Shown here: one piece after another, positions 4,059 through 37,420 of the stretch | How the letters are laid out: every line of letters starts with the position of its first letter | How positions within the stretch are numbered: position 1 is the first letter of the stretch | Assembly: GCA_904502155.1 (NCBI GenBank) | Contig: CAJGDV010000002.1 | Coordinates: forward strand, 1 to 37,763 | Source of the DNA: an uncultured Bacilli bacterium | Lineage (GTDB): Bacteria; Bacillota_I; Bacilli_A; RF39; UBA660 | Direction: 5' to 3' | Length of the DNA stretch: 37,763 bases | Program-made: the position numbers and the translations under genes | Notes under the pieces: model-generated | The model's input: the letters and a program-made list of their open reading frames with translations, nothing else | The model's database searches: none | Told to the model about the DNA's origin: nothing

Positions 4059-4433
4059 TTATTTGTTACATTTTTCACATAATCCTGTAAAGATTATTTC
4101 ACTTTTATTTATTTTACATTTATTATTAGTTTCAACAAGTGCTTTTATATCATTTAATAAATTAGCATCTACGTCAAACATATTATTACATTCTATACAA
4201 TATATATGAGCATGATCAATAAGTGTTTTATCATAATGATCTCCGCCATTAGGATTACTTATTTTTCTAATAAAACCATTTTCATATAAAGTATTTAAAT
4301 TACGATATACAGTACCCAAACTAATATTTGGAATTATTTTTCTAGCCCTTTCATATATTGTATTTACATTAGGATGGTCAGTGCTATCTAAAACAATTTT
4401 TAATATTTCTTCTCTTTGTTTAGAATATTTCAT
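4059..4433 (-). CDS. perR: Fur-family metalloregulator, probably the peroxide-stress repressor PerR
   Basis: 124 aa. It has a winged-helix N-terminus (ISLGTVYRNLNTL), an HxH region (DHAHIYC) and two CxxC pairs (CIECNN, CEKCNK). It is co-transcribed with rubrerythrin. A 7-1-7 Fur-type box lies in its own leader. Confidence 0.8.
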   Translation of the reverse strand: MKYSKQREEILKIVLDSTDHPNVNTIYERARKIIPNISLGTVYRNLNTLYENGFIRKISNPNGGDHYDKTLIDHAHIYCIECNNMFDVDANLLNDIKALVETNNKCKINKSEIIFTGLCEKCNK

Positions 4434-4449
4434 GATACACCTCCAAAAG

Positions 4450-4464
4450 TAGTAATAATTACTA
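4450..4464 (-). promoter_or_regulatory. Perfect 7-1-7 inverted repeat, a Fur/PerR-type operator, between the -10 box and the perR RBS
   Basis: TAGTAAT-A-ATTACTA. Compare the Fur-family box architecture TGATAATnATTATCA and the PerR box TTATAATnATTATAA. It is nested inside an outer inverted repeat, AGTAGTA (4448-4454) / TACTACT (4467-4473). Confidence 0.65.
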
Positions 4465-4474
4465 ATACTACTTA

Positions 4475-4503
4475 ATTATAACAAGAAAAAATCCATTTGT
4501 CAA
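4475..4503 (-). promoter_or_regulatory. Sigma-A-type promoter of perR-rbr with consensus -35 and -10 boxes
   Basis: The minus strand reads TTGACA (4503-4498), a 17-nt spacer, then TATAAT (4480-4475). Confidence 0.7.
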
Positions 4504-5166
4504 CTAAAAATGGAATCTTCTTTCAAGTTCTGATGTAACTTGTTTTTTATTAAATATCATAAGTGTTATCATTAAAAACCCACATAATACAACACATGCT
4601 ATTGAAGGCCACGTAATACTAACTTTATTAGTTAATACAAAATAAAGCGGTATCATCCCTATTAAACAATTTATATAAGAATAAATTATATAATCTTTCA
4701 ATAATCTTCTTATAAACAGTCTTAAAATAAAAATTGAAACTATATAGGATATACATACTAATGGTAAAACAAAAGTTATACTCCAGTTATGCCATCCCGT
4801 TATAAAATCCCATAATATAGATGCTATTAAAATAACATTTAATTCAGTAAAAAGAAGTTTTAAAAAATAATTTCTTCTTTGTATAGCAGTTAATAATGTA
4901 GCCCAAAAACATCCTATTGCAGCAATAACAAAATATGACCATGTAAGATGTTTTGAAATAGAATAATTTATAAATATGCATGTTAAAATCCCTGTTACTG
5001 ATATTAACAATAATAATTTATAAAGTAAAGTATGATTGTTATAATTACTCATTATAACTGGAAAAACATCATCTGTTTTTTCCTTACCTTTTAAAGGAGA
5101 TTGGCATAATGGACATTCTTCGACATTAGTATTTATATTTATATTACATTTAAAACACTTTCTCAT
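4504..5166 (-). CDS. Membrane protein with an N-terminal zinc ribbon (CxxC...CxxC) and about 5 TM helices
   Basis: MRKCFKCNININTNVEECPLCQSP is followed by hydrophobic segments. The start overlaps the stop of the upstream acyltransferase gene (5150-5166), suggesting translational coupling. I recall similar proteins annotated as a DUF next to alcohol-acetyltransferase-like genes, but I cannot verify that here. Confidence 0.6.
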   Translation of the reverse strand: MRKCFKCNININTNVEECPLCQSPLKGKEKTDDVFPVIMSNYNNHTLLYKLLLLISVTGILTCIFINYSISKHLTWSYFVIAAIGCFWATLLTAIQRRNYFLKLLFTELNVILIASILWDFITGWHNWSITFVLPLVCISYIVSIFILRLFIRRLLKDYIIYSYINCLIGMIPLYFVLTNKVSITWPSIACVVLCGFLMITLMIFNKKQVTSELERRFHF

Positions 5167-6406
5167 CGTATTCTTCCTCTCCTATTATATTTGTATTAAC
5201 ATTTATTTCAATTCCTTTACTAGTTAAATATCTAACAAAGTTTTTTTGTATTTCGTGGTCTATAAAGTGAGATGTAAATGTTATTACCATTTTATCTTTA
5301 TAAGAACACATGCAAGAACTAATAGAATCAGTACTTATAAATACACCAAATAAATTTATATGTTTTTCAAGTTCTTCTGGAACTTTAATAACACCTATAT
5401 TTGATAAAGACATTGTTTTATTACGATTAGAATTATAATGGAAATATTTTAATACTAAATCTTTTATAAAAATAGGTACTAATCTAATAACAAAAATGTT
5501 TTCTAAATTAGCTAGTGTATTCATACTTTTTTTAAGTTCTTCTTTAGTTAGTTTTTCTTTAAACTGTTTTGATACTTCTTCAAGTATTTGATCAAATTCT
5601 TCATTTTCTCCATTAAATTTATATTCAATATTTATAACATTAAAGAAATTTCTTGCAGTATTTGATGGGAAAAAATTTCTTAAATTTACAGGAACAGAAA
5701 TTATTACTGGTTTTTTCTTATCTTTATAACTCATTGTTTCAGAAATACTTTTAATTAGCAATGTTGTTAAGTATTCAGTAATAGTTTTCCCAGTTTCCTT
5801 AGATAGTTTTAATACTTCTTTTGAAGACATTATTAATTCTAATATTTTTGTCCCGTTTTCAGGATATTTTTTACCATTTATTACATATGCTTTTTTTGAT
5901 TCATTTTTTTGAAATAGTTTTTCTTTTTTATAATATTTTTTGTAACTATCTTTTTCTCTTTCTATAACAGAAATATCATCAACTATTAAATCTTTGCTAA
6001 CTTTATTTTTTATTGTTTCATAGTTACATATTAATACTTTTAAGAAATTAAGAGTTCCTGTTCCATCTGTTAAAGCATGATTAACTTCAACATTAATTCT
6101 TTTCTTATAATAAGAAACTCTAAATAAAAGTCCATCTTTCATTTCTTCACATGGAATACTATTTTCTTCTTTAACTTCAGGTATTATATTAGATGTTTCT
6201 AAATAATACCAAAAAAATCCTTTTTTTAATGTTGATCTAAATAATGGAAATTCCTTTAATGTTTTTTGTAATGCTCTATCTAATATTTTTTGTTCTATGC
6301 ATTCGTTAAGTTCAACATAAAAACGAAAAACTTTAGTATCATTTTTTGTAGAAGTTGGTGGGAATATTTTTGCTGCATTCTCTAGTTTGTACCATCTTTT
6401 ATTCAT
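5150..6406 (-). CDS. HxxxDG acyltransferase of the condensation / alcohol-acetyltransferase / CAT-like superfamily
   Basis: The catalytic motif is VNHALTDGTG (HxxxDG). I place the start at ATG 6406 (MNKRWYKLENAAKIF), preceded by a GGTGA RBS. The ORF-track start at 6415 is a GTG inside that RBS. The ATG overlaps the stop of the esterase gene in the sequence ATGAATAA. Confidence 0.7.
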   Translation of the reverse strand: MNKRWYKLENAAKIFPPTSTKNDTKVFRFYVELNECIEQKILDRALQKTLKEFPLFRSTLKKGFFWYYLETSNIIPEVKEENSIPCEEMKDGLLFRVSYYKKRINVEVNHALTDGTGTLNFLKVLICNYETIKNKVSKDLIVDDISVIEREKDSYKKYYKKEKLFQKNESKKAYVINGKKYPENGTKILELIMSSKEVLKLSKETGKTITEYLTTLLIKSISETMSYKDKKKPVIISVPVNLRNFFPSNTARNFFNVINIEYKFNGENEEFDQILEEVSKQFKEKLTKEELKKSMNTLANLENIFVIRLVPIFIKDLVLKYFHYNSNRNKTMSLSNIGVIKVPEELEKHINLFGVFISTDSISSCMCSYKDKMVITFTSHFIDHEIQKNFVRYLTSKGIEINVNTNIIGEEEYDEKVF

Positions 6407-10847: not shown

Positions 10848-12923
10848 TTATAATTTATTAATACTTTTGTGTCCTTTTAATAACTTTTTAATGCCAATAG
10901 GATGTGCAAAAGCGATTGTAAGAATAGATTTATCAATTCCAACAATAACTCCAACACCAAATGTATCATGTTTTATCTTATTTCCAATTTCATATGTAGC
11001 ATTTTCATCAATGAATGTTTTGGTTCTAACTTTTATTATTTCTTCAACATAATCTTTCTCAAGTAATGATTCATCTATTTCATTTATAAATCTACTTGTT
11101 GGATTCATGTTTTGCATTCCGAAATATGTTCTTCTCTTAGCATTTACAAGCCATAATTTTTCTTTGGCTCTTGTAATAGCTACATAACATAATCGTCTTT
11201 CTTCTTCAATTTCATCTTTACTTTCCATACAATTAGTATGTGGGAAAATACCTTCTTCCATACCTATTATGAAAACATTTTTAAATTCTAATCCTTTAGC
11301 AGCATGTATAGTCATTAATGTTACAACATTAGTAGATTGTTTGTATTCTTCAACATCTGATACTAATGATAATTCCATTAAGAAATCTTGTAATGATACA
11401 ATTCCTTTTTCTTCTTCAAAGCTTCTAGTTATTGACTTAAATTCTTCTAAATTTTCAATACGAAGTTCTGCTTCTAAAGTTTTTTCTTCTTCTAATTCTT
11501 TTCTAAGTCCTGATTTTTCTAAAACTATTTCAACTAATTCTGTCAAAGTTTTATCATGACTTTCTTTTTTTATACTTTCAATAATGTTTTTAAAATCTTG
11601 TTCTTTACCACTATCTATAACATCATAAATACTTTGACCTGTTTCGTTTGCTTTATTAATAAGATTTTCTATTGTTTTATTACCTATCCCTCTTTTAGGT
11701 GTATTTATACATCTTAATAAACTTAAATCATCATGACTATTATAAATAATATTTAAATATGAAATTAAATCTTTAATTTCTTTTCTTTTATAAAAATAAA
11801 TACTACCAATAACCTTATAAGGAATATTAGCTTTTAATAATGCTTCTTCCATATTTCTTGATTGAGCATTAGTTCTATATAAAACGCAAATATCTTCAGG
11901 ATTGTCTGTTTTTAATAATTCTTCTATTTTACATTTTACATAATAAGCCTCATCTTTTTCATTTTCACTTCGATGATAAATAACTTTAGAACCTATAGTG
12001 TTATCAGTATATAATTTTTTTTCTTTTCTTAATTTATTAACTTTAATAATTGAATTAGCAACATCCAATATTGGTTTTGTAGATCGATAATTTTTTTCAA
12101 GTAATATTGTTTTACAGTCTGGATAATCTTTTTCAAAATTTAAAATATTTTTATAATTTGCACCTCTAAATGAATATATAGCTTGGTCATTATCACCAAC
12201 AACACATAAATTTCTATTTTTAGCACTAATCATTTTTGTAAGTAAATATTGTGCATGATTAGTATCTTGATATTCATCAATTAAAACATATTTAAATCTT
12301 TCTTGATATTGTTTTAATATATTAGGATTATTATAAAATAAATATATAGGTAACATTAATAAATCATCAAAATCAACTGAATTATTTATTGCTAATTTAT
12401 CTTGATATTTTTTATAAACTTTATGCACTATTTGATCATATTCTGTTTGAACATATTTTTCATAGTCTTCAGGAGATATCATTTCATTTTTAGCGCTACT
12501 TATTTTATTTCTTATCGTTTTAGGATTATAAATTTTAGGGTCTTTGTTCATATCTTTAATTATTTTCTTAACAATAGTTAATGAATCATCACTATCTAGT
12601 ATTGTAAAATTTTTAGTAAAGCCTAATTCATCATAATATTCTCTTAAAATAGATAGACCAAAGGAATGAAATGTAGATATTTGTATTTTATATGCTATAG
12701 GGCCTAAATATTTTAAAACTCTTTCTTTCATCTCTTTTGCCGCTTTATTAGTAAAAGTTATTGCTAAAATTGATTCTGGTGAAATACCTATTTCACTTAT
12801 TAAATATGCAATTTTAGTTGTTAAAACTTTTGTTTTCCCACTACCTGCTCCTGCTAAAATTAGTAATGGTCCATCAGTATTTAAAACCGCATCTTTTTGT
12901 TTATCATTTAAACTTTTTATCAT
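10848..12923 (-). CDS. pcrA: ATP-dependent DNA helicase PcrA (UvrD/Rep superfamily 1)
   Basis: The motifs are AGAGSGKT, DEYQDTN, VGDNDQAIYSFRGA, YRS, TIHAAKGLEF and CYVAITRAKEKL. I place the start at ATG 12923 (MIKSLNDKQ), 5 nt after a GGTGA RBS. The track start at 12947 lacks an RBS. Confidence 0.92.
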   Translation of the reverse strand: MIKSLNDKQKDAVLNTDGPLLILAGAGSGKTKVLTTKIAYLISEIGISPESILAITFTNKAAKEMKERVLKYLGPIAYKIQISTFHSFGLSILREYYDELGFTKNFTILDSDDSLTIVKKIIKDMNKDPKIYNPKTIRNKISSAKNEMISPEDYEKYVQTEYDQIVHKVYKKYQDKLAINNSVDFDDLLMLPIYLFYNNPNILKQYQERFKYVLIDEYQDTNHAQYLLTKMISAKNRNLCVVGDNDQAIYSFRGANYKNILNFEKDYPDCKTILLEKNYRSTKPILDVANSIIKVNKLRKEKKLYTDNTIGSKVIYHRSENEKDEAYYVKCKIEELLKTDNPEDICVLYRTNAQSRNMEEALLKANIPYKVIGSIYFYKRKEIKDLISYLNIIYNSHDDLSLLRCINTPKRGIGNKTIENLINKANETGQSIYDVIDSGKEQDFKNIIESIKKESHDKTLTELVEIVLEKSGLRKELEEEKTLEAELRIENLEEFKSITRSFEEEKGIVSLQDFLMELSLVSDVEEYKQSTNVVTLMTIHAAKGLEFKNVFIIGMEEGIFPHTNCMESKDEIEEERRLCYVAITRAKEKLWLVNAKRRTYFGMQNMNPTSRFINEIDESLLEKDYVEEIIKVRTKTFIDENATYEIGNKIKHDTFGVGVIVGIDKSILTIAFAHPIGIKKLLKGHKSINKL

Positions 12924-12954
12924 TTTATCACCACTTTTCCAAAACATTATAACA

Positions 12955-12983
12955 TAATAAAAACTATCTAAAAAGATAGTTTA
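12955..12983 (-). terminator. Rho-independent terminator after murI
   Basis: Stem aaactatct / agatagttt (12961-12982) overlaps the murI stop. On the minus strand it is followed by TTTTTATTAT. Confidence 0.6.
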
Positions 12984-13712
12984 TAAAACTTTTTCTATTA
13001 TTTCTAAATCACCAAATATTAAACTAACAGCTTCTTTAATTTCAGGCGTAATTTTACTAAAATATATTTTAATATCATTTATACTATATGTTGGATTTAC
13101 TTCTTCAGCGACTAATAATCCTATATCTAGGCAAGGTATTTTAGTATATTCACTTATCTCTTCGGAAATAAGTCCATAGTGTGTACAACCTGGAATAATA
13201 ACTTCAATATCTAGATCTTTGAAATCATAAAGATATTCACCAATTGCTGTAATTAATGGTTCATTTATTTTATTTTCAATTATAGGTACAAATTTAGGAC
13301 ATGCTTTAGTATAAACTTCTACTCCAGCTTTAGCTAATTTTTCTTCAAATAATTTTGCTTGAATTGTTTTTTCAGTACCTAATAATAAAACTTTTTTTAA
13401 ATTTGTTTTTTGGATAGATTTTATAATTGGATTTATAATATCATATATTTTTACATCATATTTAGATTTAACACTATCATAAATTGTTGAACTTAATGTT
13501 CCGCATGCTATAACAATAACATCAACTTCATGGCTTATTAAAAATTCTATTATTTTATTTGATAATTGTTTTAATTCATCAACTCTTTTTTCACCATATG
13601 GTAAATTAAGAGTATCTCCAAAATAAATATATTCATTATTTGGACTAACTTCTGTTAATGCTTTTAATACTGTTAATCCACCTATACCTGAGTCAAAAAC
13701 ACCTATTTTCAT
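12981..13712 (-). CDS. murI: Glutamate racemase
   Basis: MKIGVFDSGIGGLTVLKAL, IACGT (first catalytic Cys) and PGCTHY (second catalytic Cys). GAGG RBS. Confidence 0.9.
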   Translation of the reverse strand: MKIGVFDSGIGGLTVLKALTEVSPNNEYIYFGDTLNLPYGEKRVDELKQLSNKIIEFLISHEVDVIVIACGTLSSTIYDSVKSKYDVKIYDIINPIIKSIQKTNLKKVLLLGTEKTIQAKLFEEKLAKAGVEVYTKACPKFVPIIENKINEPLITAIGEYLYDFKDLDIEVIIPGCTHYGLISEEISEYTKIPCLDIGLLVAEEVNPTYSINDIKIYFSKITPEIKEAVSLIFGDLEIIEKVL

Positions 13713-13713
13713 A

Positions 13714-14643
13714 TTATTTTCCTCTATATAATAATCTAGTTTTTATATTAAATGCATTAAATCCTAATAAAGTTTCAAATACTTGATATTTTTTATTTAA
13801 TGATAATTTATTATCTTTAATAGCATAATTTCGATATAATTTAATATATTCATACATTTGTTTTTTATATCTTGTACTATTAACTTTTTTAAATAAATCA
13901 ATTGCTTCATAGCAAATTTTAACTTTACATTTATTAACAAGTTTTGGATAGTTTTTTTCCATAAAATCTAACATTTCCAAACAACCTTTAATTTTTTTAA
14001 CACAATCGTGATCATTGTAATCGTTATTTTTTTCTTCTACTAAACAATATTTTCTTACTGGTGAATATGCTAATTTAGTAGCTTCGTGAAACAATTTATA
14101 TGATGTTACTATGTCATCATAAACTTCGTATCCTGGATATTGAATATTTTTAAATAATTGTTTTTTATAAAGTTTCCCAAATGAATTACTTCTAAAAGTC
14201 ATTTTTAAATATTCGTCAAGAATTTCTTCTTCATGGAAAACATAAACTTTTTGTGGTTTTTTTGTTGGTTTTTCATTTAGACCATAATAATCTTGACATA
14301 CAATATCAGCATTTTTTTCAACCATAATATGATACATATCATTAATAAAAGTTGGTTCTACTTTATCTCCACCTTCTACAAATGTAATATATTTTCCTTT
14401 TGCTTCCTTAATTCCAATATTTTTTTTGTTTTCAATTGCTTTGTTTACTTTATTAATTATTTTTATTCTTTTATCTTTTTTTGCATAGAATTTACAAATT
14501 TTTAGTGTATAGTCATTTGTTATATCACTAACTAAAATAATTTCAATATTTTTATATGTTTGATTAACAAGTGATTCAAGGCATACATTTATATATGATT
14601 CAACATTCATTATTGGAACAATTATACTTACTAAATCTTTCAT
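13714..14643 (-). CDS. Family 2 glycosyltransferase (GT-A fold)
   Basis: VSIIVPIMNVESYINVCLESLVNQTY is a typical GT2 N-terminus. VSD and FVEGGD resemble DxD motifs. I place the start at ATG 14643 (MKDLVS), after a GGTGA RBS. The track start at 14679 adds 12 hydrophobic aa that overlap the serS terminator. Confidence 0.8.
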   Translation of the reverse strand: MKDLVSIIVPIMNVESYINVCLESLVNQTYKNIEIILVSDITNDYTLKICKFYAKKDKRIKIINKVNKAIENKKNIGIKEAKGKYITFVEGGDKVEPTFINDMYHIMVEKNADIVCQDYYGLNEKPTKKPQKVYVFHEEEILDEYLKMTFRSNSFGKLYKKQLFKNIQYPGYEVYDDIVTSYKLFHEATKLAYSPVRKYCLVEEKNNDYNDHDCVKKIKGCLEMLDFMEKNYPKLVNKCKVKICYEAIDLFKKVNSTRYKKQMYEYIKLYRNYAIKDNKLSLNKKYQVFETLLGFNAFNIKTRLLYRGK

Positions 14644-14669
14644 ACTATCACCTATTATAATTATACAAT

Positions 14670-14698
14670 AAAAAAACAACTTTTAAAAGTTGTTTTTT
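14670..14698 (-). terminator. Rho-independent terminator after serS
   Basis: aaaaaacaactttt / aaaagttgtttttt forms a palindrome directly after the serS stop codon. Confidence 0.7.
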
Positions 14699-14700
14699 AT

Positions 14701-15987
14701 TTATTTTGCTACCTCTATTTTCTTTTTTCCACCCATGTATGGTTGTAATGCTACAGGGATGTTTAAACTTCCATCTTCATTTAGATTATTTTCAACAACT
14801 GCAATTAATCCTCTTGGAGTTGCAAGTACTGTATTGTTTAGTGTGTGTACATAATAAGTTCCATTTTCACCTTTAGTTCTGATACCAAGTCTTCTAGCTT
14901 GTGCATCTCCTAAAGTTGAACAACTTCCTACTTCAAAATATTTTTGTTGACGTGGACTCCATGCTTCAACATCGCATGATTTAACTTTTAGATCTGCTAA
15001 ATCTCCACTACAACATTCAAGTGTACGAACTGGTACATCTAAAGTTCTAAAGAACTCAACAGTGTATTGCCACATTTTATTATACCATTCCATACTATCT
15101 TCAGGTTTACATAATACAACCATTTCTTGTTTTTCGAATTGATGTACTCTGTATACTCCTCTTTCTTCAAGTCCATGACTTCCTACTTCTTTTCTAAAAC
15201 ATGGAGAATAAGATGTCATACTAATTGGTAATTCTTGTTCTTTAACGATTTGATCTTTAAATTTACCAATCATTGAATGTTCACTAGTTCCGATTAAATA
15301 TAAATCTTCATTTTCGATTTTGTACATCATTGCATCCATTTCTTCAAAACTCATAACTCCAGTAACTACGTCACTTCTAATCATGAATGGTGGAATACAA
15401 TATGTAAATCCTTTATCAATCATAAAATCTCTTGCATAAGAAATCATTGCTGAATGTAATCTTGCAACATCTCCAACTAAGTAATAGAAACCATTACCAC
15501 TTGTTCTTCCAGCACTTTCTTTATCAATACCATTAAATTTAGCCATAATATCAGCATGATGTGGGATTTCAAAATCTGGAACTACTGGTTCACCAAATTT
15601 TTCATTTTCAACATTTTCATTATCATCTTTACCAATAGGTACAGTTTCATCCATAATATTTGGAATAACCATCATACGTTGTTTGATTTCTTGTTGTAAT
15701 TCTTCTTCTTGTTTTTCTAATTCAGCTATTTTATCGTTAAATTCAGCAACTTCGTTTTTAACTTTTTCAGCTTCTTCTTTTTTTCCATCTCTCATTAAAT
15801 TTCCGATTAAAGCTGATTTAGCATTTTTATCAGCTCTTAATGCGTCTGCTTCTCCTTTAGCATCTCTAAATTTAATATCTAAATCATATACTTCATCAAC
15901 TAATGGAAGTTTATGATCTTGAAATTTTTTCTTAATATTTTCTTTTACTAATTCTTTGTTTTCTCTAATTAATTTAATATCTATCAT
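14701..15987 (-). CDS. serS: Seryl-tRNA synthetase
   Basis: 428 aa. It has the N-terminal coiled-coil tRNA-binding arm (MIDIKLIRENKELVKENIKKK...) and a class II core (LIGTSEHSMIG, CFRKEVGSHG, RVHQFEKQEMV, GSCSTLGDAQARRLGIR). A Ser-specific T-box leader precedes it. Confidence 0.93.
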   Translation of the reverse strand: MIDIKLIRENKELVKENIKKKFQDHKLPLVDEVYDLDIKFRDAKGEADALRADKNAKSALIGNLMRDGKKEEAEKVKNEVAEFNDKIAELEKQEEELQQEIKQRMMVIPNIMDETVPIGKDDNENVENEKFGEPVVPDFEIPHHADIMAKFNGIDKESAGRTSGNGFYYLVGDVARLHSAMISYARDFMIDKGFTYCIPPFMIRSDVVTGVMSFEEMDAMMYKIENEDLYLIGTSEHSMIGKFKDQIVKEQELPISMTSYSPCFRKEVGSHGLEERGVYRVHQFEKQEMVVLCKPEDSMEWYNKMWQYTVEFFRTLDVPVRTLECCSGDLADLKVKSCDVEAWSPRQQKYFEVGSCSTLGDAQARRLGIRTKGENGTYYVHTLNNTVLATPRGLIAVVENNLNEDGSLNIPVALQPYMGGKKKIEVAK

Positions 15988-22670: not shown

Positions 22671-22700
22671 AAAAAAAGAAGATATTATCTTCTTTTTTTT
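22671..22700 (-). terminator. Hairpin terminator after the 83-aa coiled-coil gene
   Basis: aaaaaaagaagat-att-atcttctttttttt. The stem runs from 22676 to 22694, with A- and T-tracts on both sides. It spans the stop codon at 22685-22687. Confidence 0.6.
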
Positions 22701-22936
22701 CTTTCATTAATGAATGTAACAGGATCAAAATCAAGACCCATAGATAATAATGCGATTTCATTAACTACTTCAGTTTTAAGACTTTTTAATTGTTTTAGTT
22801 GTCTTTCAAATCTTTTTCTAGTTGATTCATCTTTTACATAATTTAGTCTTTGTTCTAATTTTTCAATTTCCTTATTTAATACCATAAGTTTATCTCTTAA
22901 AACAATTAATCTTCCAAAATCTTTGTTACCACTCAT
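22685..22936 (-). CDS. Small coiled-coil protein (83 aa), function unknown
   Basis: Strong GGAGGAG RBS. The sequence has a heptad-like charged pattern (LMVLNKEIEKLEQRLNYVKDESTRKRFERQLKQLKSLKTEV). Confidence 0.55.
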   Translation of the reverse strand: MSGNKDFGRLIVLRDKLMVLNKEIEKLEQRLNYVKDESTRKRFERQLKQLKSLKTEVVNEIALLSMGLDFDPVTFINERKKRR

Positions 22937-22990: not shown

Positions 22991-23665
22991 TTAAAGCATT
23001 TTTTGTTTGTAACCGCCTAAAATATTATCACATACTTTTATTGCCGCATCTGTTTTGTCTAATTTTGTTGTGTCCAACATATAAGTATCTTTAATAATAT
23101 CATATAATGGCATCATGCCTTTTGTCAATGCTTCATTATAATTTTTTATATTTTCAGGAAACAAATCAAAATTTGGTTCAAGTGCTAAAGTATTGAAATA
23201 TTTTCTTTTAGCAGCAACCATAGGGTCACATCTCATAACAACAATTTTATCAATATCTTTTAAAAATTTTCTACATGCTAAATAGAAATTTTTATTATTT
23301 CCTTCACAATTAACTATGTACTTGATATATCCATCTAATACACCACGATTTATAAATACTAAATCATGATTTTTAGCTATGTACATAATTTTTTCCATTT
23401 CTTTAATTGTATTATTATTTTCTTTGATGTTTACTACATCATAGCCATAATTTTTAAAGAAATCTGTCATCATTGTAATAGTTGTATCAATACCAGCATT
23501 AGGTGTTCCTGCAAAATCTATAATATATGGTTTGCAGTAATTTTTTTCATTTTTTAATTCCATAAGGTGTACTTTCTTTTTGTGTAAGTCTTCTAGTTGT
23601 CTTAAACGATCTAAATCGCTAGCATAAATATCGATCAATTTGTCATATTTTTGCTTGTCGTACAT
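22991..23665 (-). CDS. P-loop-kinase-like protein with a degenerate Walker A motif (224 aa), function unknown
   Basis: I place the start at ATG 23665 (MYDKQKYDKL), after a strong AAAGGAGG RBS. The track start at 23698 lies inside the predicted promoter. IIDFAGTPNAGIDTT occupies the position of a GxxxxGK[ST] P-loop, but the Lys is replaced by Ile. Confidence 0.55.
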   Translation of the reverse strand: MYDKQKYDKLIDIYASDLDRLRQLEDLHKKKVHLMELKNEKNYCKPYIIDFAGTPNAGIDTTITMMTDFFKNYGYDVVNIKENNNTIKEMEKIMYIAKNHDLVFINRGVLDGYIKYIVNCEGNNKNFYLACRKFLKDIDKIVVMRCDPMVAAKRKYFNTLALEPNFDLFPENIKNYNEALTKGMMPLYDIIKDTYMLDTTKLDKTDAAIKVCDNILGGYKQKML

Positions 23666-23689
23666 ATTTAAAACCTCCTTTGCTGAGGT

Positions 23690-23763
23690 ATTATACATTA
23701 TTTACGCAAATTTGACAAATTTTTAAAATAGTAATTGTATTCTAATTTTAAAATAAGTATAAT
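23690..23763. promoter_or_regulatory. Divergent promoter region
   Basis: The minus-strand promoter reads TTGTCA (23718-23713), a 17-nt spacer, then TATAAT (23695-23690), and serves the 224-aa gene. The plus-strand promoter reads TTGTAT (23735-23740), a 17-nt spacer, then TATAAT (23758-23763), and serves the 23789 gene. A plus-strand TTGACA at 23712-23717 overlaps the minus-strand -35 box. Confidence 0.5.
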
Positions 23764-23788
23764 TATATATATAAGGTATGGTGAAAAT

Positions 23789-24451
23789 ATGGCAAAAACA
23801 GTTAAAAGAATCAAGCCTAAAATTATTTTTAAATTTAAATTAATCATTGCATGTTTTATACTTATTGTTCTTGTATCTTTTGTAAGTAATACATTCTCAA
23901 AATATGTTTCAAGTTCCCAAGGAGATTTAACAGTTTCTTTTGCCAAATGGCAAATATTAGTAAATAATTTAGATATTACTGAAGAGGCAAATTCAAAAAT
24001 TGTTTTTGTTCCAGTTGTTAAAGCTAATGAAGATGTTAATGAGAATGCTGTTGCTCCTTCAACAGAAGGATATTTTGATATTAAAATTGATCCAAGTAAT
24101 GTAGGTCTTTCTTTTAGATATGATATAGATTTTGAAATAGAAAATAAAGATATTCCGGATTTGATGATATCAAAATATGCTATAATTCCAAATGACTTTC
24201 AGGAAGGTGTTGATGGAATAACTTATACTACATTAGATTCTAATGTTGTTTCAAATGAAATGATTTTTGATAAAAAAACTGAAAATTTTCAATTTGAACC
24301 TTTTACTGTTCGCTTATGGTTTGAATGGTATGAAGGCGAAGGAGAACAAATGCTTGATGAAGATGATGCTATAATTGGTTCTGTTGCAGCTTTAGAAACC
24401 ACAAAATTTAGAATGATAGCAAATGTAAAATTTGAACAAATAATGAAATAA
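23789..24451 (+). CDS. Secreted or signal-anchored TasA/camelysin-like protein (220 aa); the only plus-strand gene in the window
   Basis: The ATG at 23789 follows a GGTGA RBS (aaggtatGGTGAaaatATG). The N-terminus is basic, then hydrophobic, then carries the motif NTFSKYVSS. Downstream, APSTEGYFDIKIDPSNVGLSFRYDI resembles the PG/beta-sandwich segment of TasA-family proteins. The track start at 23735 has no RBS. Confidence 0.65.
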   Translation: MAKTVKRIKPKIIFKFKLIIACFILIVLVSFVSNTFSKYVSSSQGDLTVSFAKWQILVNNLDITEEANSKIVFVPVVKANEDVNENAVAPSTEGYFDIKIDPSNVGLSFRYDIDFEIENKDIPDLMISKYAIIPNDFQEGVDGITYTTLDSNVVSNEMIFDKKTENFQFEPFTVRLWFEWYEGEGEQMLDEDDAIIGSVAALETTKFRMIANVKFEQIMK

Positions 24452-24484
24452 AAAAAACGCTTTAAGAAATTAAGGCGTTTTTTT
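24451..24484. terminator. Bidirectional rho-independent terminator between convergent genes
   Basis: AAAAAAACGCTTTAA-GAAA-TTAAGGCGTTTTTTT is flanked by an A-tract and a T-tract. It also contains the stop codon of the minus-strand 409-aa gene. Confidence 0.8.
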
Positions 24485-25691
24485 CAGCTTCAATTATTGG
24501 AATGATTTTGCATTGACTTTCGTTTGAAACTTTATAAATTTTAGATGTATTTTCATCATTTGGACCAATTGCAAAACCACCATCTTCGCCATATGGCATA
24601 TTAGTCCATATACATGTATCAGCTTTTAAGAAACTAAATTTACTATTTAAATATTTATAATAAGCTTCTTTATCGATCACATCAGCTATTTGGATTTCCA
24701 TTCGATTTAAATTTTCATTTTTATAATCAACATATCCTAGAATTTTATCAGAATAGCCTTCTCTAACAACAAAAGTATTACTTATATCCTTAGATATTGC
24801 TGATATAAATTTAGTTAAATCAAGTGGTTTAAATTCAGTATTATTTAATGTTTCTATTACTGATTCATAAGTAGTAAAATTTGTTTCTCCAAAATTCGAA
24901 TTAAAATCTGGAATTAATGTTACAGTTTCATCACTTCTTAAATTTAATTTATCAATTACATATGTTTTAATACATGTACCTTTCATTTCGGTGCATTTTT
25001 GTTTTGTAGTTGTATCATATAGTATTTCTTGACCCAAATCAAATCTAGAATCTGGAACATTAAGCTGAGAATCTACCATTTGTTCTGCAGTTAATTTAAT
25101 TACAACTTCGATTGGAGATTTAACTTTATAATCAGAATTTTCCGCTTTAGCAGCTTCCGATACTAAGAAATTATATGCATTTGTTCCCCATAAACTATCT
25201 AAATCGTCATCACCTGAATCAAAAGGCCATGCTACAGATACTTCTAAACTTGATTCGCCACCTTTTTTAAGAACATATTCTTTATCAAGTGCTGCATTAA
25301 TTTGAAATGGGTAATTATTTGCTAATGCATCCTCTACTTCTTTTGAAGTTAATGTATCACTTACAACATAATTGTCTTCTTCTTTATCTAGAATTCTTGC
25401 TGAAACAATTGAATATTTTATTAATGCATCACTATCCCCAGAGTTTTTAATATTTATTATTTCACTCATTGTTTCCATTCCAGGAGAAATTTCAGGGAGA
25501 GTAATTGTAATATTTTTGGATGTTGTATCTTTATCTATTTCGATGCTCCATGCTCTAATATCAATTTTTGTTGCAACATCTGATAAACCAGAATAAGCAA
25601 ACCAAGCTAGAGTTCCAGATATAAAGGAAACTGCTATAAAAAATAGTGACATTATATTTGCTTTTATAAAAGCCTTATGTCTACGTTTCAT
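24462..25691 (-). CDS. Secreted TasA/camelysin-like protein with a C-terminal extension (409 aa)
   Basis: GGAGGTG RBS. The signal MKRRHKAFIKANIMSLFFIAVSFISGTLAWFAYSG resembles the SipW-cognate GT(F/L)A(F/W)F signal of TasA. EISPGMETMSEIINIKNSGDSDALIKYSI resembles the LKPGD...N.G segment of TasA and camelysin. Confidence 0.65.
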   Translation of the reverse strand: MKRRHKAFIKANIMSLFFIAVSFISGTLAWFAYSGLSDVATKIDIRAWSIEIDKDTTSKNITITLPEISPGMETMSEIINIKNSGDSDALIKYSIVSARILDKEEDNYVVSDTLTSKEVEDALANNYPFQINAALDKEYVLKKGGESSLEVSVAWPFDSGDDDLDSLWGTNAYNFLVSEAAKAENSDYKVKSPIEVVIKLTAEQMVDSQLNVPDSRFDLGQEILYDTTTKQKCTEMKGTCIKTYVIDKLNLRSDETVTLIPDFNSNFGETNFTTYESVIETLNNTEFKPLDLTKFISAISKDISNTFVVREGYSDKILGYVDYKNENLNRMEIQIADVIDKEAYYKYLNSKFSFLKADTCIWTNMPYGEDGGFAIGPNDENTSKIYKVSNESQCKIIPIIEAEKNALIS

Positions 25692-25709: not shown

Positions 25710-26285
25710 CTATTTATTTGCTCTTGCTCTTCTTTTTTCTTCTTCCGATTCTAAAAGTGTTGCTATAATTTCAGTAGCTATAATTACCATTAAAGGTAAT
25801 ATAACACATAATAACATTCCTAATTTAGATGAAATAGTTTTATATACAAACGATAATATATTTGCTTTATATACTACTTTTCCATATAATTGTTTTTCAT
25901 TTACAATTGGATCTTGAACTAAATTAGCAATTCCTTTAGTGTGAAATAATAATTCACCAGTTTCATTTTTTTCAATATTTATAACTTCATGAGTTACAAT
26001 TTTTCCATTAAAGTTACCTTCAGCCCCTAAATAACTAACTGTATCACCAATTTCTATTGTTTCTGGATCAACGTCTTTTGATATAAGCACATCACCAATA
26101 TTATATTTTGGTTCCATACTTCCTGTAACTACAGTAAATAATCTATAGTTTAAAAGTGCCATTTTATTATCTGTAAATCTTTGTAAGCATACTGCTAATA
26201 CAAAACATGCTAATGCAATAACAAGTAATGTATTTAAAACACCTTTTACTAGATTAAATATTTTTTTAAATTTTCTTTTTTTCAT
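25710..26285 (-). CDS. sipW: SipW-type (ER/archaeal-type, S26B) signal peptidase I, compact form (191 aa)
   Basis: It has an N-terminal TM segment, the catalytic Ser box VVTGSMEPKYNIGDVLIS, the His box IVTHEV and the box-E-like TKGIANLVQDP (canonical form TKGDNN..D). A C-terminal TM segment is followed by a short charged tail (ESEEEKRRARANK). Confidence 0.8.
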   Translation of the reverse strand: MKKRKFKKIFNLVKGVLNTLLVIALACFVLAVCLQRFTDNKMALLNYRLFTVVTGSMEPKYNIGDVLISKDVDPETIEIGDTVSYLGAEGNFNGKIVTHEVINIEKNETGELLFHTKGIANLVQDPIVNEKQLYGKVVYKANILSFVYKTISSKLGMLLCVILPLMVIIATEIIATLLESEEEKRRARANK

Positions 26286-26291
26286 ACTACT

Positions 26292-27422
26292 CTACAAATA
26301 ATCTTGTGTCCTTTCTATATATTCATCCATTGCATCTCTAAATTTATTTTTAACGTCTTTTTGACCAATAGATTCTTTATTTTTCATAGCTTCAATTTCT
26401 TTAGAGAATAGTTGTAAAAGTTCTTCATCTGTAATTTTAATTCCTAGTTTAAATAATAATGATACTATTCTTCTAATTTCTTGTGTTATTAAAACGCCAG
26501 CTGTTTTTTTAAGATTTTCTTTTTGCTCTGATTTCTTTTTACTAATACAATTTAATGTTAAATAATCAATCATGAATGAATGATTTAATAAATCTCTAAT
26601 AATATCATCGCCATCAGATTCTACTCCTTCTTCTGGTTCAGCATCACTCATATCATATTTTGAAAGATATACCCATAACTTCATTGCAACTTGGAAATTA
26701 GGATTTTTAAGTATTACGTTTGTCTTAGTAATTGGAGGTTTTACAAATGCTGCACGTTCTTTTTTTAGACCTGTACAAAATTCACTTCTTCTCCAAATTG
26801 ACATATATTTTTTGATTTTTTCAATTCGAGGTAAGATTTCTTCGATTTGTTTTCTAAATTTTTCTGCCCCTTCTCCTTGAAGATCTTCGATGGCATTAAT
26901 TTTAAATTCAATTCCAAATCTACCTGCATTACTATTTGATTTCCCACTATACTCTAGTGTTTTTTCATTTTTAATTTCAAAGTTTTCTAACTCTTCAATT
27001 CTTTGTCTAACAAATCTTTCTAGTTTATCTAGTAAAGTATATGCTACACGATTTTCGTATGTATTGAAGGTGTCTATCCCTCTAATATTAAGTAATTTAG
27101 AGGGAATAACATCTCCAGTCTTTTCATCTACTCTATCAATATAAAATGTATGTCTTGATAAATCTTTAACTGTTTCTACAGTTGTTTTTTTTGCTTTTTC
27201 AATTTTTTCTACATTAGCTTCTGTAATTAAGGCTAGTTTAGGATTTCTTACAATATTATCTAAATATGGTAAAGCATCTTCAACTATTTGTACCCATTCA
27301 AAATCTAATGTATCTCCTGATAAAACCGAATCAAAATGCATTTCACTTTCGATTTTACTCATAAATGCTTCACATCTAGCATTAACATCTTTATCTAATA
27401 TTTCGCTTAAAATTTTTGTCAT
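26292..27422 (-). CDS. McrC N-terminal-like (DUF2357-like) protein with no recognisable PD-(D/E)xK nuclease domain (376 aa)
   Basis: It lies 16 nt downstream of the McrB-like gene. The stretch W..IVEDALPYLDNIVRNPKLALITEANVEKIEKAKKTTVETVKDLSRHT....IDTFNTYENRVAYTLLDKL matches my recollection of the N-terminal region of McrC-like/DUF2357 proteins (P..L......v.......rh......DT.ENRF). The C-terminal half is helical and charged, with no D...(D/E)xK pattern that I can see. Confidence 0.5.
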   Translation of the reverse strand: MTKILSEILDKDVNARCEAFMSKIESEMHFDSVLSGDTLDFEWVQIVEDALPYLDNIVRNPKLALITEANVEKIEKAKKTTVETVKDLSRHTFYIDRVDEKTGDVIPSKLLNIRGIDTFNTYENRVAYTLLDKLERFVRQRIEELENFEIKNEKTLEYSGKSNSNAGRFGIEFKINAIEDLQGEGAEKFRKQIEEILPRIEKIKKYMSIWRRSEFCTGLKKERAAFVKPPITKTNVILKNPNFQVAMKLWVYLSKYDMSDAEPEEGVESDGDDIIRDLLNHSFMIDYLTLNCISKKKSEQKENLKKTAGVLITQEIRRIVSLLFKLGIKITDEELLQLFSKEIEAMKNKESIGQKDVKNKFRDAMDEYIERTQDYL

Positions 27423-36700: not shown

Positions 36701-37420
36701 TTTTGTTGATAGTACTTGTGAAAAATTTTCATTTCTATTAAAAATATTTCCGTTTACAATTACATTATTAATTGCTGTATTTTCAGCATTACTTACAAGT
36801 CCTGCTGTATTTATACCACCTTTTACATAAATATTATCAACATATAAATTATTAATAGCACCTTCTAAATTAGTAAATAATGCCGCATTATCTTTGTTTT
36901 TATCATTCATATAAAATCCATATATAGTATGGAAATTACCATTGAAAGTACCTTTAAAATTATCTAGTGAATCAATTATATTAATTGAACCAATTTCATT
37001 TTTAAATTCACTATCTTCATAATATTTGTTATTTTCTTCATTTACGTAATATGTTACTTTATCTAATATGTATAAAAGTCCTAATTCTTCACTATATGAA
37101 AATTTACCTTTATTTATAATAATATCAGTATTTAATGTAAAGTATTTGTCTTCATAATCTTTTGTTTCTAATTGTTTTTCAAAGAATGCTAATTCAGCAC
37201 CGTTTGAAATAACATAAGGATTTTCAAGGGAACCATTCCCTTTTCTATAACTTGTTGCAACTGTTATACCGTCCCACTCTGTTACTCCCATCAAACTTGT
37301 ACGATTATGAAGTCTAGCAAAAGTTGGAAATACTACTGTTGCTAAAACTATTAATATTGAAATTACTGATATAATTAAAATTTTATTTTTATTATTAATT
37401 TTTTTAAATCTATATCTCAT
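33785..37420 (-). CDS. Large surface protein with GLUG-motif repeats and Ig-like/beta-sandwich domains (1211 aa); candidate adhesin
   Basis: The N-terminal signal/anchor is KILIISVISILIVLATVVFPTFARLHN. GNGSLENPYVISNGAELAFF is followed by repeated GLUG-type segments (AGLVSNAENTAINNV, AGGLIAEAVGEIEINNSYNKGNI, SAGLIATIENN, YYGGLVGIINN). ISATDDLSGIDKIEYY is an Ig-like domain signature. There is no LPXTG sorting signal. Confidence 0.75.
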   Translation of the reverse strand: MRYRFKKINNKNKILIISVISILIVLATVVFPTFARLHNRTSLMGVTEWDGITVATSYRKGNGSLENPYVISNGAELAFFEKQLETKDYEDKYFTLNTDIIINKGKFSYSEELGLLYILDKVTYYVNEENNKYYEDSEFKNEIGSINIIDSLDNFKGTFNGNFHTIYGFYMNDKNKDNAALFTNLEGAINNLYVDNIYVKGGINTAGLVSNAENTAINNVIVNGNIFNRNENFSQVLSTKQEDIELIGEQSLNINLINNHSISGLIIDNQKLTGNISVTNVDDHDYILEINGITYDSDTFELELLGSNIQINVITDSETIKIDLTNLNYNIELEKATIAGIGAHLKNSTINNVANKANIYGKYNAGGLIAEAVGEIEINNSYNKGNIVAENVSAGLIATIENNNSSLNINNSYNTGDTEGTYYGGLVGIINNINSAAINDSVHAGANDYLISSVINTNVTADNTYYINGLTPINNGTYEGLIFQKSLEELSNNDYFKENLGYNEYVNKSDLANNSDNLWVYEKNELPILYFDDISNPIANIHAGIYSWNNYSNELNKKGFRNSISFSIENIDELNPYTNAYYIIESGTNINPLTKDELLNKDWILFDGVITLEEESEYIIYAKIEKESEVQYINSDLLVLDNNAPIITMEMDNNIWQEFIEEPDEFVLDRTKNLTISATDDLSGIDKIEYYISEEALTYTQIEELSELNYKEYDEPILIDDVGKVIVYAKTTDISGNISYANSSIFLLDGYIQSDIYPGTEKGSNLGNYITNKSSITIETSYNNEGKFDQTYSHNLKTNVLLPKNTKITLIDFVLNKVYTYVIPTENDEYGYDENNYATYPLVLFNEVGTINNQIKYVENSYEESGKINEEFTITFDFSNALMGENLLDVQAYLEVCNAGLNTIRPTLYDQIKPFNVIIDNNDAPLVLETDYKDNVVELNSNSQTKIGFTSKLDYLKFNENTVYNTKYELMKIGLGIKLLDSDGNIVTKDKMSNMIFVYKDKEYYPDSDNIVHINLENGISEVNDTLTIKTIESDINLKQGTYYFKIFNYIAYDGYILENINTNEIEIKAILSNNKVKYDYEFEIKMDKADQILTKNELFKIPFEIKYKGELTNPNVKLALYKKSSLNPINQDYELIDLRTFTEDELNLYINSIYNIVDTLEIYDEENKKINNYELNINTNNIETNGYKFQFQLYDDAKLISTQDKYFIVK

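Follow-up and report, generated by a model that had tools for sequence, protein, structure and literature searches.

McrBC is a textbook modification-dependent restriction enzyme. In a stretch of 37,763 nucleotides (nt) from an uncultured Bacilli bacterium (GenBank assembly GCA_904502155.1, contig CAJGDV010000002.1), referred to here at its full length as the window, the two-protein core of McrBC persists without a nuclease or DNA-binding domain, bound to the membrane and within a cluster of genes for secretion and, putatively, fiber formation. Our analysis centered on the second gene of this pair, which encodes a 376-amino-acid (aa) protein of the DUF2357 family and had initially been annotated, from the nucleotide sequence alone, as an McrC-like adaptor that apparently lacks the PD-(D/E)xK nuclease. 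We favor, with a probability of roughly 0.6, the reading that this protein is a nuclease-less, McrC-derived partner or adaptor of a membrane-anchored McrB-family NTPase, and that the two work as a motor for fiber or pilus assembly rather than in restriction; within it, the identification of a nuclease-less adaptor outside restriction is near certain, and the role as a fiber-assembly motor much less so.

The closest described systems belong to CoCoPALM, a class that Bell et al. 2024 (eLife 13:RP94800, PMC11090510) named in one paragraph, deferring its analysis to a future publication. As characterized there, CoCoPALM loci encode NxD McrB-like GTPases fused to an FtsB-like transmembrane (TM) and coiled-coil segment, their McrC homolog is "usually" fused to a coiled-coil domain, and proteins of the signal peptidase family are associated with them. 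The window shares the McrB-like NxD GTPase with its FtsB-like TM and coiled-coil segment (a homology that we took from PMC11090510), the DUF2357 partner, and the signal peptidases, two of which score above the model cut-off while the third is a degenerate paralog; long K/E/A-rich coiled-coil tails are found as well, on distant relatives of the DUF2357 protein. It differs in that its own McrC homolog measures ~376 aa and ends in short helices with no coiled-coil tail, charged repeats being carried instead by the peptidase-like proteins. Because the published account says "usually", the missing tail does not exclude membership, and with this as the only feature lacking, the window cluster is a member of CoCoPALM, a class already named computationally. 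New with respect to that account are an EAL-like domain on a SipW-like peptidase of 751 aa and true EAL proteins in distant related clusters; the main text of PMC11090510 mentions neither EAL nor cyclic di-GMP (c-di-GMP). Searches of a literature library turned up no follow-up paper on CoCoPALM and none on McrB together with TasA or SipW, the apparent matches being Escherichia coli strain genotypes, and CoCoPALM-related terms were absent from two supplementary files of the eLife paper in text form. The window offers a compact and complete example of this named class, hitherto without a detailed computational description.

For McrC itself, DUF2357 has been described as the N-terminal domain that binds and activates McrB (PMC11090510), and the finger of TgMcrC, the activating Lys/Arg (Lys157/Arg263) and a proposed rotary stepping have been reported (PMC7680126). 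Like the E. coli and Thermococcus McrC proteins (PDB 6hz4, 6ut6, 6ut7), the DUF2357 protein of the window is encoded next to, and in the same orientation as, an McrB-family gene, has a DUF2357-type N-terminal region, contains a predicted helix/long β-hairpin/helix arrangement that recalls the finger domain, and has an invariant K233 that may parallel Lys157/Arg263. Unlike them, it has no PD-(D/E)xK domain, and no similarity to E. coli McrC was detectable by hhalign or Foldseek; its partner NTPase carries a TM anchor instead of a DNA-binding domain, and the genomic context, in contrast to the type IV restriction endonuclease EcoKMcrBC, is not one of restriction-modification. The CoCoNuT systems (types I-III; CnuB/CnuC) are similar in that they belong to the same NxD branch and their McrC homologs often lack the nuclease or have it inactivated, and the NTPase of the window matches the PADLOC model PDC-M26A. 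CoCoNuTs missing the McrC nuclease, however, always have HEPN or other nucleases (PLD, Vsr-like) alongside (PMC11090510), whereas we recognized no nuclease, helicase or RNA-binding domain in the window cluster. The cluster falls outside the CoCoNuT definition for this reason, since accompanying nucleases are required and none was recognized.

On the secretion side, the operons to compare are TasA/SipW/TapA of Bacillus subtilis and BsaA/SipW of Clostridium perfringens, which likewise place a SipW-type (archaeal or endoplasmic-reticulum type) peptidase beside proteins with TasA-like signal peptides but contain no cytoplasmic NTPase, DUF2357 protein or EAL-bearing peptidase. In the B. subtilis system, assembly of the fibers is known to take place outside the cell, with no cytoplasmic motor.

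A nuclease-less relative of McrC

Upon inspection of the gene and its flanks, we found that the DUF2357 gene follows the 520-aa McrB-like gene (stop codon TAG) after a spacer of 16 nt, itself ends with TAG, and is followed 6 nt later by the start of a 191-aa SipW gene. The initial annotation had likewise placed it directly downstream of an McrB-like gene, and the peptide strings quoted there are present in the translation. Only two short open reading frames (ORFs; 60 and 84 aa) overlap the gene in other frames. A frameshifted nuclease remnant beside the gene, which the initial annotation had suggested looking for in the two flanks, is ruled out by the 16-nt and 6-nt spacers, which leave no room for one, and by the lack of further long ORFs. 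Charged residues are frequent in the protein (D+E 18.1%, K+R 16.5%), and no TM segment is predicted in it.

The family is large and under selection. A word-indexed search returned more than 1154 homologs, nearly all ~377 aa long and with DUF2357 as their sole annotation, and when 1.84 billion cluster representatives were searched exhaustively with the profile of the target family, 1843 proteins were found at E<=1e-3, including 604 at E<=1e-30. Compared with an 88%-identical ortholog in a closely related locus (L088), the ratio of nonsynonymous to synonymous substitution rates (dN/dS) was 0.128 overall; residues 1-183 alone gave 0.117 and residues 184-376 gave 0.140. Both halves of the protein are under strong purifying selection, and the C-terminal, nuclease-less half is constrained as much as the DUF2357 half; with a dN/dS of ~0.13 for either half and over 1000 homologs of full length, a pseudogene or decaying gene is ruled out. 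Relatives of 450-1150 aa have their first 300-370 residues in common with the protein and continue into long low-complexity tails, rich in K, E and A, that resemble coiled coils. DUF2357 was present in the ten longer relatives sampled, and the window protein is the minimal form of its family, with no long tail. PDB sequence searches with the protein and with the family profile gave chance or low-complexity matches only, such as a Cas9 fragment (E 0.007) and designed repeat proteins.

The relation to McrC is carried by the N-terminal half. Pfam DUF2357 (PF09823) matched the protein with an E-value of 4.7e-7 and 29.7 bits, exceeding the gathering score of 23.3, over profile positions 95-194 of 251, and was found in all 39 of the aligned homologs (best E 2.4e-14). 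Residues 53-125 are highly conserved and end in an invariant FNTYENR motif, and the mean column entropy is 0.93 bits in the DUF2357-matched stretch against 1.3-2.0 bits elsewhere; residues 53-152 are presumed to be the part that engages McrB. Beyond this match, AlphaFold2 (AF2) predicted a long β-hairpin (residues 151-180) bordered by long helices at 122-146 and 184-212. In relatives, the DUF2357 profile reaches into this hairpin, up to profile position 215, and the hairpin would therefore be part of a finger-like module; it may correspond to the β "stalk" in the finger of McrC, a structural equivalence that we infer from the model.

The most conserved stretch of the family lies further on, at residues 229-250, with P230, K233, T234, N235, K239, N240, N242, F243 and A246 invariant, and the motif is kept in three distant relatives (P0315, P0312 and P0308). 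The context of K233 (ITKTNVILKN, with K-T-N-x-x-x-K) resembles that of Lys157 in E. coli McrC (GGKNTRYYKF), a weak lead that makes K233 a candidate counterpart of this GTPase-activating residue. Because residues 229-250 are the most conserved of the whole protein, the McrC-like module probably ends only near residue 250, which suggests that only the last ~125 residues are a replacement module. The initial annotation had limited the McrC/DUF2357-like region to the N-terminal ~150 aa; the relationship stands, and the boundary was probably set about 100 residues too early.

In the C-terminal half, searches of Pfam, NCBIfam and PADLOC models identified no family at E<=1. No PD-(D/E)xK or McrBC family was found at E<=1 among the 39 aligned homologs, and no nuclease family at E<=0.01 in the ten longer relatives. 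The AF2 model, built on the 39-homolog alignment (mean predicted local distance difference test score [pLDDT] 74, with residues 190-345 mostly at 80-93), has helices at 184-212, 214-221, 235-258, 273-292, 297-325, 332-350 and 354-375, so that residues 184-376 are helical but for one 3-residue strand, and the model lacks the four-stranded α/β core by which PD-(D/E)xK enzymes are defined. Five (D/E)xK sites occur in the protein, three of them within helices, and none of the five has a conserved Asp 8-40 residues upstream. Foldseek found nothing at E<=1e-3 when the full-length model was compared with the PDB; its top matches, TolC/OprM-like proteins, were rejected as meaningless (TM-scores 0.15-0.18). 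Library scans of the cluster proteins recognized no nuclease family in any of the ten cluster genes, and the pair is for this reason not a classical restriction endonuclease. That the protein is a nuclease-less adaptor outside restriction is near certain. The initial annotation thus read this half correctly, as a helical and charged remainder of ~220 aa with no nuclease signature, and held that, if so, the pair could not act in restriction; no match to a nuclease fold has emerged since, and the link to DUF2357 has been substantiated.

A membrane-anchored partner in a conserved cluster

The 520-aa partner has a strong TM helix near its N-terminus (residues 53-85). A basic patch comes next, and after it a short FtsB/FtsL-like coiled coil, for which the match to FtsL_Actino (E 0.0076 over residues 56-112) is weak and below the cut-off. 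Its AAA+ core matches E. coli McrB structures (6hz4, 6ut6, 7vsr) at E ~1e-4, the best being 6hz4 (E 9.7e-5), and the NCBIfam McrB model matches with E 4.2e-5, far below that model's cut-off. The expected motifs are present as GISGTGKT (Walker A), LILDEMN (Walker B) and INNDDS (signature loop). Across 79 related loci, Walker A and Walker B (ILDEMN) are invariant, and the signature loop GTINNDDSTF is invariant in 78, the lone variant (INNDAS) retaining N-x-D. This loop fits the "NxD then D/E" branch of Bell et al.; HMMER aligns it without gaps to NTAD of E. coli McrB, so that an NxxD reading is formally possible. The McrB-like gene is the most conserved of the cluster (58-79% identity, versus 40-70% for the DUF2357 gene), and the two are paired in every locus for which the sequence reaches far enough. 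It overlaps the gene of the 751-aa peptidase by 1 nt (28999-29003), which suggests that translation of the two membrane proteins is coupled.

The cluster as a whole consists of ten genes, namely the McrB-like GTPase, the DUF2357 protein, three SipW-like peptidases and five proteins with SipW/TasA-type signal peptides. Nine of them lie on the minus strand between 37420 and 24462, with gaps of -14 to 44 nt, and the tenth is convergent (Table 1). We scanned one genome per species of GTDB r232, which gave 277 matching stretches, and examined the best 80 loci. All of these are metagenome-assembled genomes (MAGs), mostly labeled Bacilli, Mollicutes, Mycoplasmatota, Tenericutes or "Candidatus Coprovivens". 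When the window proteins were compared with the loci by tblastn, the ten genes kept the same order and orientation wherever the contig was long enough, so that the arrangement is conserved in ~80 species-level genomes of uncultured Bacilli. The flanking genes, by comparison, differ among the loci and are housekeeping genes (tyrS, rpsD, ezrA, thiI, SASP, comM, dprA, topA). Throughout a whole lineage of uncultured Bacilli from guts and digesters, the cluster shows a conservation like that of housekeeping machinery, and it has relatives in other Bacillota. About 20 of the loci carry the label "uncultured Muribaculaceae" (Bacteroidota; for example L007-L009, L017 and L030), one is labeled Ignavibacteriales and one Actinomycetes; these labels almost certainly reflect mislabeled bins or contaminating contigs and not horizontal transfer.

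Half of the cluster encodes secreted proteins. The 409-aa protein, whose position is conserved in ~75 loci, is a putative fiber subunit, and the 300-, 190- and 1211-aa proteins, in which no Pfam family was found, putatively serve as minor subunits and as a large tip protein or adhesin. The convergent 238-aa gene holds its position in most loci. At the position of the 1211-aa protein, two distant clusters with contigs long enough to be read (L084 and L089) encode a 1246-aa surface protein with GLUG motifs (12249-15986) and a 2005-aa LRR_5 protein, respectively, and this variable giant secreted protein may be the adhesive tip of the fiber.

Table 1. Positions of the features discussed, in nucleotides of the window
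Feature	Positions	Strand	Basis
376-aa soluble DUF2357 protein without nuclease domain (target gene)	26292-27422	-	ORF, ATG start, Pfam
Pfam DUF2357 match, residues 53-152	26967-27266	-	Pfam, alignment of 39 homologs
Predicted long two-stranded β-hairpin, residues 151-180	26883-26972	-	AF2 secondary structure
Motif PPIxKTNxILKNPNFQxAMKLW, residues 229-250	26673-26738	-	Alignment, entropy 0.53 bits
Predicted all-helical C-terminal module, residues 251-376, in place of the McrC nuclease domain	26295-26672	-	AF2 model
520-aa McrB-like AAA+ NTPase	27439-29001	-	PDB, NCBIfam and PADLOC matches, motifs
751-aa SipW-type signal peptidase	29001-31256	-	TIGR02228 E 2.1e-19, Peptidase_S24, TM, catalytic motifs
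Predicted EAL-like β/α domain at the C-terminus of the 751-aa protein	29049-29585	-	AF2, Foldseek
Predicted six-helix bundle before the EAL-like domain, 751-aa protein	29604-30086	-	AF2
334-aa SipW-like pseudo-peptidase	31301-32305	-	TIGR02228 E 0.025 only; alignment
191-aa SipW-type signal peptidase	25710-26285	-	TIGR02228 E 7e-22; SipW (Bacillus) model E 6e-18
1211-aa protein, SipW/TasA-type signal peptide	33785-37420	-	Translation, TM segment
190-aa protein, SipW/TasA-type signal peptide	33198-33770	-	Translation, TM segment
300-aa protein, SipW/TasA-type signal peptide	32309-33211	-	Translation, TM segment
409-aa secreted protein, TasA/SipW-type signal peptide (...GTLAWFAYS...)	24462-25691	-	Translation, one N-terminal hydrophobic segment
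238-aa secreted protein, SipW-type signal peptide	23735-24451	+	TIGR04087 TapA E 0.058 (weak)
Terminator-like hairpin AAAGACC...GGTCTTT and T-run	31277-31297	-	Consensus scan only

A predicted EAL-like domain on a signal peptidase

The 751- and 191-aa peptidases score 69.9 and 78 bits against TIGR02228, for which the cut-off is 51.85. In the larger protein, the Ser, His and Asp motifs are intact, and two TM helices and an acidic/basic linker are accompanied by a long, conserved cytoplasmic tail. For this tail, a search with the single sequence gave 7 homologs, and a second search with their alignment followed; AF2 was run on the last 372 residues with a 39-sequence alignment and returned a confident model (pLDDT 86.5, predicted TM-score [pTM] 0.85). 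Compared with the PDB by Foldseek, it matched EAL domains almost exclusively, the best match being FimX (4fou and, at the top, the EAL domain 4ag0_B with E 1.3e-3, prob 1.00 and TMt 0.48), with further matches to the PilZ-FimX(EAL)-c-di-GMP complex, Bd1971, MorA and MucR. FimX is a degenerate GGDEF-EAL c-di-GMP receptor that controls type IV pilus assembly, so that in both cases a degenerate EAL fold would be linked to a pilus machine; the window domain differs from it in being fused to a signal peptidase and not to GGDEF/REC, at a Foldseek E-value of only ~1e-3 and with no sequence similarity detected. On the strength of the model, the tail may be a degenerate c-di-GMP receptor.

True EAL genes stand at the head of both of the distant clusters introduced above, which contain orthologs of the McrB-like and DUF2357 genes. 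In L084, where the McrB-like protein matches that of the window at E 1e-166 (and FtsL_2 at E 0.049), this is a standalone 269-aa EAL gene (4087-4896, Pfam E 1.7e-46); in L089, it is a 484-aa HD_5+EAL gene (4461-5915) behind a histidine kinase and a response regulator. The EAL-like tail and these EAL genes together suggest c-di-GMP control of, or input to, the cluster. Such input is characteristic of machinery for adhesion, pili and biofilms, not of defense.

The 334-aa paralog has lost the catalytic Ser, His and Asp, all three positions being replaced, and keeps both TM helices. Its cytoplasmic tail is encoded by a 45-nt tandem repeat in 5.8 copies (31460-31729) with a charged 15-aa unit (...EEDEEEEKPRKKR...). 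As a separate observation, the 191-aa peptidase has Ile (TKGIANLVQD) at the position aligned with the Asp of GD(A/N)N in other SipW-like sequences; its Ser and His are retained, and another Asp is found 7 residues further on.

Assembly motor, defense system or regulatory switch

By analogy with McrBC, residues 53-125 of the DUF2357 protein, its β-hairpin and the 229-250 motif would insert asymmetrically into the pore of the McrB-like hexamer at the inner face of the membrane, where the protein would stimulate nucleotide hydrolysis, one site at a time, through Lys or Arg (candidates K233, R125 and K86). The helical module of residues 251-376, located where McrC has its nuclease and dimer interface, would link the ring with the SipW-like proteins through their cytoplasmic tails or dimerize two rings, and motor work or switching would drive or gate the processing and polymerization of SipW-dependent fiber or pilus subunits, with the EAL-like tail of the 751-aa peptidase as a possible sensor providing c-di-GMP input. 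In its most complete form, the proposal would make the McrBC-derived NTPase ring and its nuclease-less DUF2357 "rotor" the engine of an unrecognized Gram-positive fiber or pilus machine, with SipW-processed subunits and with c-di-GMP control through EAL domains that are fused to the peptidase here and free-standing elsewhere; taken as a whole, this is tentative, and we would rate it as less likely than not. If the pair does power or gate the assembly of fibers, a defense motor would clearly have been exapted for cell-surface biogenesis, and a cytoplasmic NTPase would be added to TasA/SipW fibers, which have been thought to be motor-less; the recurrent EAL modules make c-di-GMP control a concrete and testable hypothesis.

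Several results weigh against this reading or limit it. When the 39-sequence family profile was compared with E. coli McrC by hhalign, nothing was detected, no McrC structure was in the Foldseek list of the model against the PDB, and E. coli McrC is assigned to a different Pfam family (PF10117, not PF09823); direct homology to this protein was accordingly set aside, and the link to McrC is drawn through the Pfam family and the literature because neither method gave one. The AF2 model is of moderate confidence (pTM 0.45), and residues 63-118 are modeled with low confidence, as would be expected if this segment folds upon binding. The strongest profile match of the McrB-like protein is PDC-M26A (E 1.4e-35), a PADLOC candidate-defense model, and we found no paper mentioning "PDC-M26". 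In the tail of the 751-aa protein, Pfam EAL was not detected by sequence, hhalign against a true EAL protein was not significant (E 0.21) although the DDFG/KxD region aligned, and most canonical catalytic residues are missing as judged by eye. The secreted proteins of the cluster matched no Pfam family and no TasA/camelysin family, and a PDB sequence search with the 409-aa protein gave nothing, so their putative identity as "pilins" is argued from the resemblance of their signal peptides and from context. CoCoPALM, finally, is itself known only from computation.

With these points in mind, we considered whether the C-terminal half could be a diverged or novel nuclease, whether the pair could belong to a defense system, and whether it could be a switch. 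The first would treat the conserved E157...E172-x-K174 on the predicted hairpin as a remnant active site, and these residues are indeed well kept on two adjacent strands (E157 in at least 90% of sequences, E172 in 0.87, K174 in 0.92), in a protein whose C-terminal half is under purifying selection. The hairpin, however, falls within the DUF2357 profile coverage in relatives, which places it in the finger and not in a nuclease domain, residues 184-376 are helical with no four-stranded α/β core in the model, and neither the 39 homologs, the ten longer relatives nor Foldseek produced a nuclease match; a cryptic nuclease is highly improbable. An anti-phage or abortive-infection system, in which the McrB-like/DUF2357 pair senses infection and the membrane peptidases or charged tails, in place of a nuclease, are the effectors and act by proteolysis or by damaging the membrane, would suit the McrBC ancestry, the PDC-M26A match, the predicted defense role of the related NxD-type CoCoNuTs, the membrane anchoring and the highly charged tails of the 334- and 751-aa peptidase-like proteins. 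But the DUF2357 protein, the three peptidase-like proteins and the 409-aa protein match no PADLOC model, half of the cluster codes for secreted proteins that carry signal peptides of the SipW type, related clusters repeatedly contain EAL and c-di-GMP modules, and the flanks are housekeeping genes with no mobile or defense-island neighbors. The ten-gene order also persists across ~40-70% protein divergence in ~80 species genomes, and an NTPase identity of 58-79% with a dN/dS of 0.13 is a pattern typical of core cellular machinery, whereas defense genes evolve fast and are patchy. We therefore consider a defense system unlikely. The initial annotation had proposed that the effector lies elsewhere, for example in the peptidase tails or the membrane; the location fits the membrane-anchored NTPase and the EAL-like tail, but the defense framing implied by "effector" is probably wrong, as conservation and context point to pilus or fiber assembly.

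Harder to distinguish from an assembly motor is a nucleotide-dependent regulatory switch or quality-control device that gates SipW peptidase activity or subunit secretion, for instance in response to c-di-GMP, and does no polymerization work. The 1-nt overlap of the McrB-like gene with the gene of the EAL-bearing peptidase, the structural match of the tail to a degenerate EAL regulator of type IV pilus assembly, the presence of a pseudo-enzyme among the peptidase paralogs, and the extracellular, motor-free assembly known for TasA-type fibers would all be in keeping with it. The extreme conservation of the NTPase catalytic loops shows that hydrolysis matters, not what it is used for, and the data here do not separate a switch from a motor; as an alternative to the favored assembly motor, we judge the switch rather doubtful.

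Other features of the window

The 44-nt gap between the 334- and 751-aa genes holds a terminator-like hairpin, and a promoter-like site was placed at 31256-31228 by consensus scan only; the hairpin may split the cluster into two transcription units. At the ~23% G+C of the window, the scan for sigma-70 promoters is uninformative (141 sites versus 132 expected). Rfam gave no match in the window. SpoVIF and AddA/AddB are encoded downstream of the cluster, which indicates a spore-forming, Bacillota-type host; AddAB lies 3-7 kb from the cluster and is a neighbor in only a few related loci. Directly downstream of the cluster (22991-23698, minus strand) is a gene for a 235-aa protein with a weak match to the "putative kinase" model PRK03839 (E 2.7e-4). 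As tblastn found it in 0 of the 80 loci, this gene is outside the conserved cluster; the close relative L088 has a 226-aa gene call at the same position. At 22685-22936 (minus strand), an 83-aa protein just passes the cut-off of 25 bits for Pfam EAD9 ("effector-associated domain 9"), a marginal match with 25.4 bits and E 1.2e-5, and L088 carries an 83-aa gene at the same position, beside SpoVIF.

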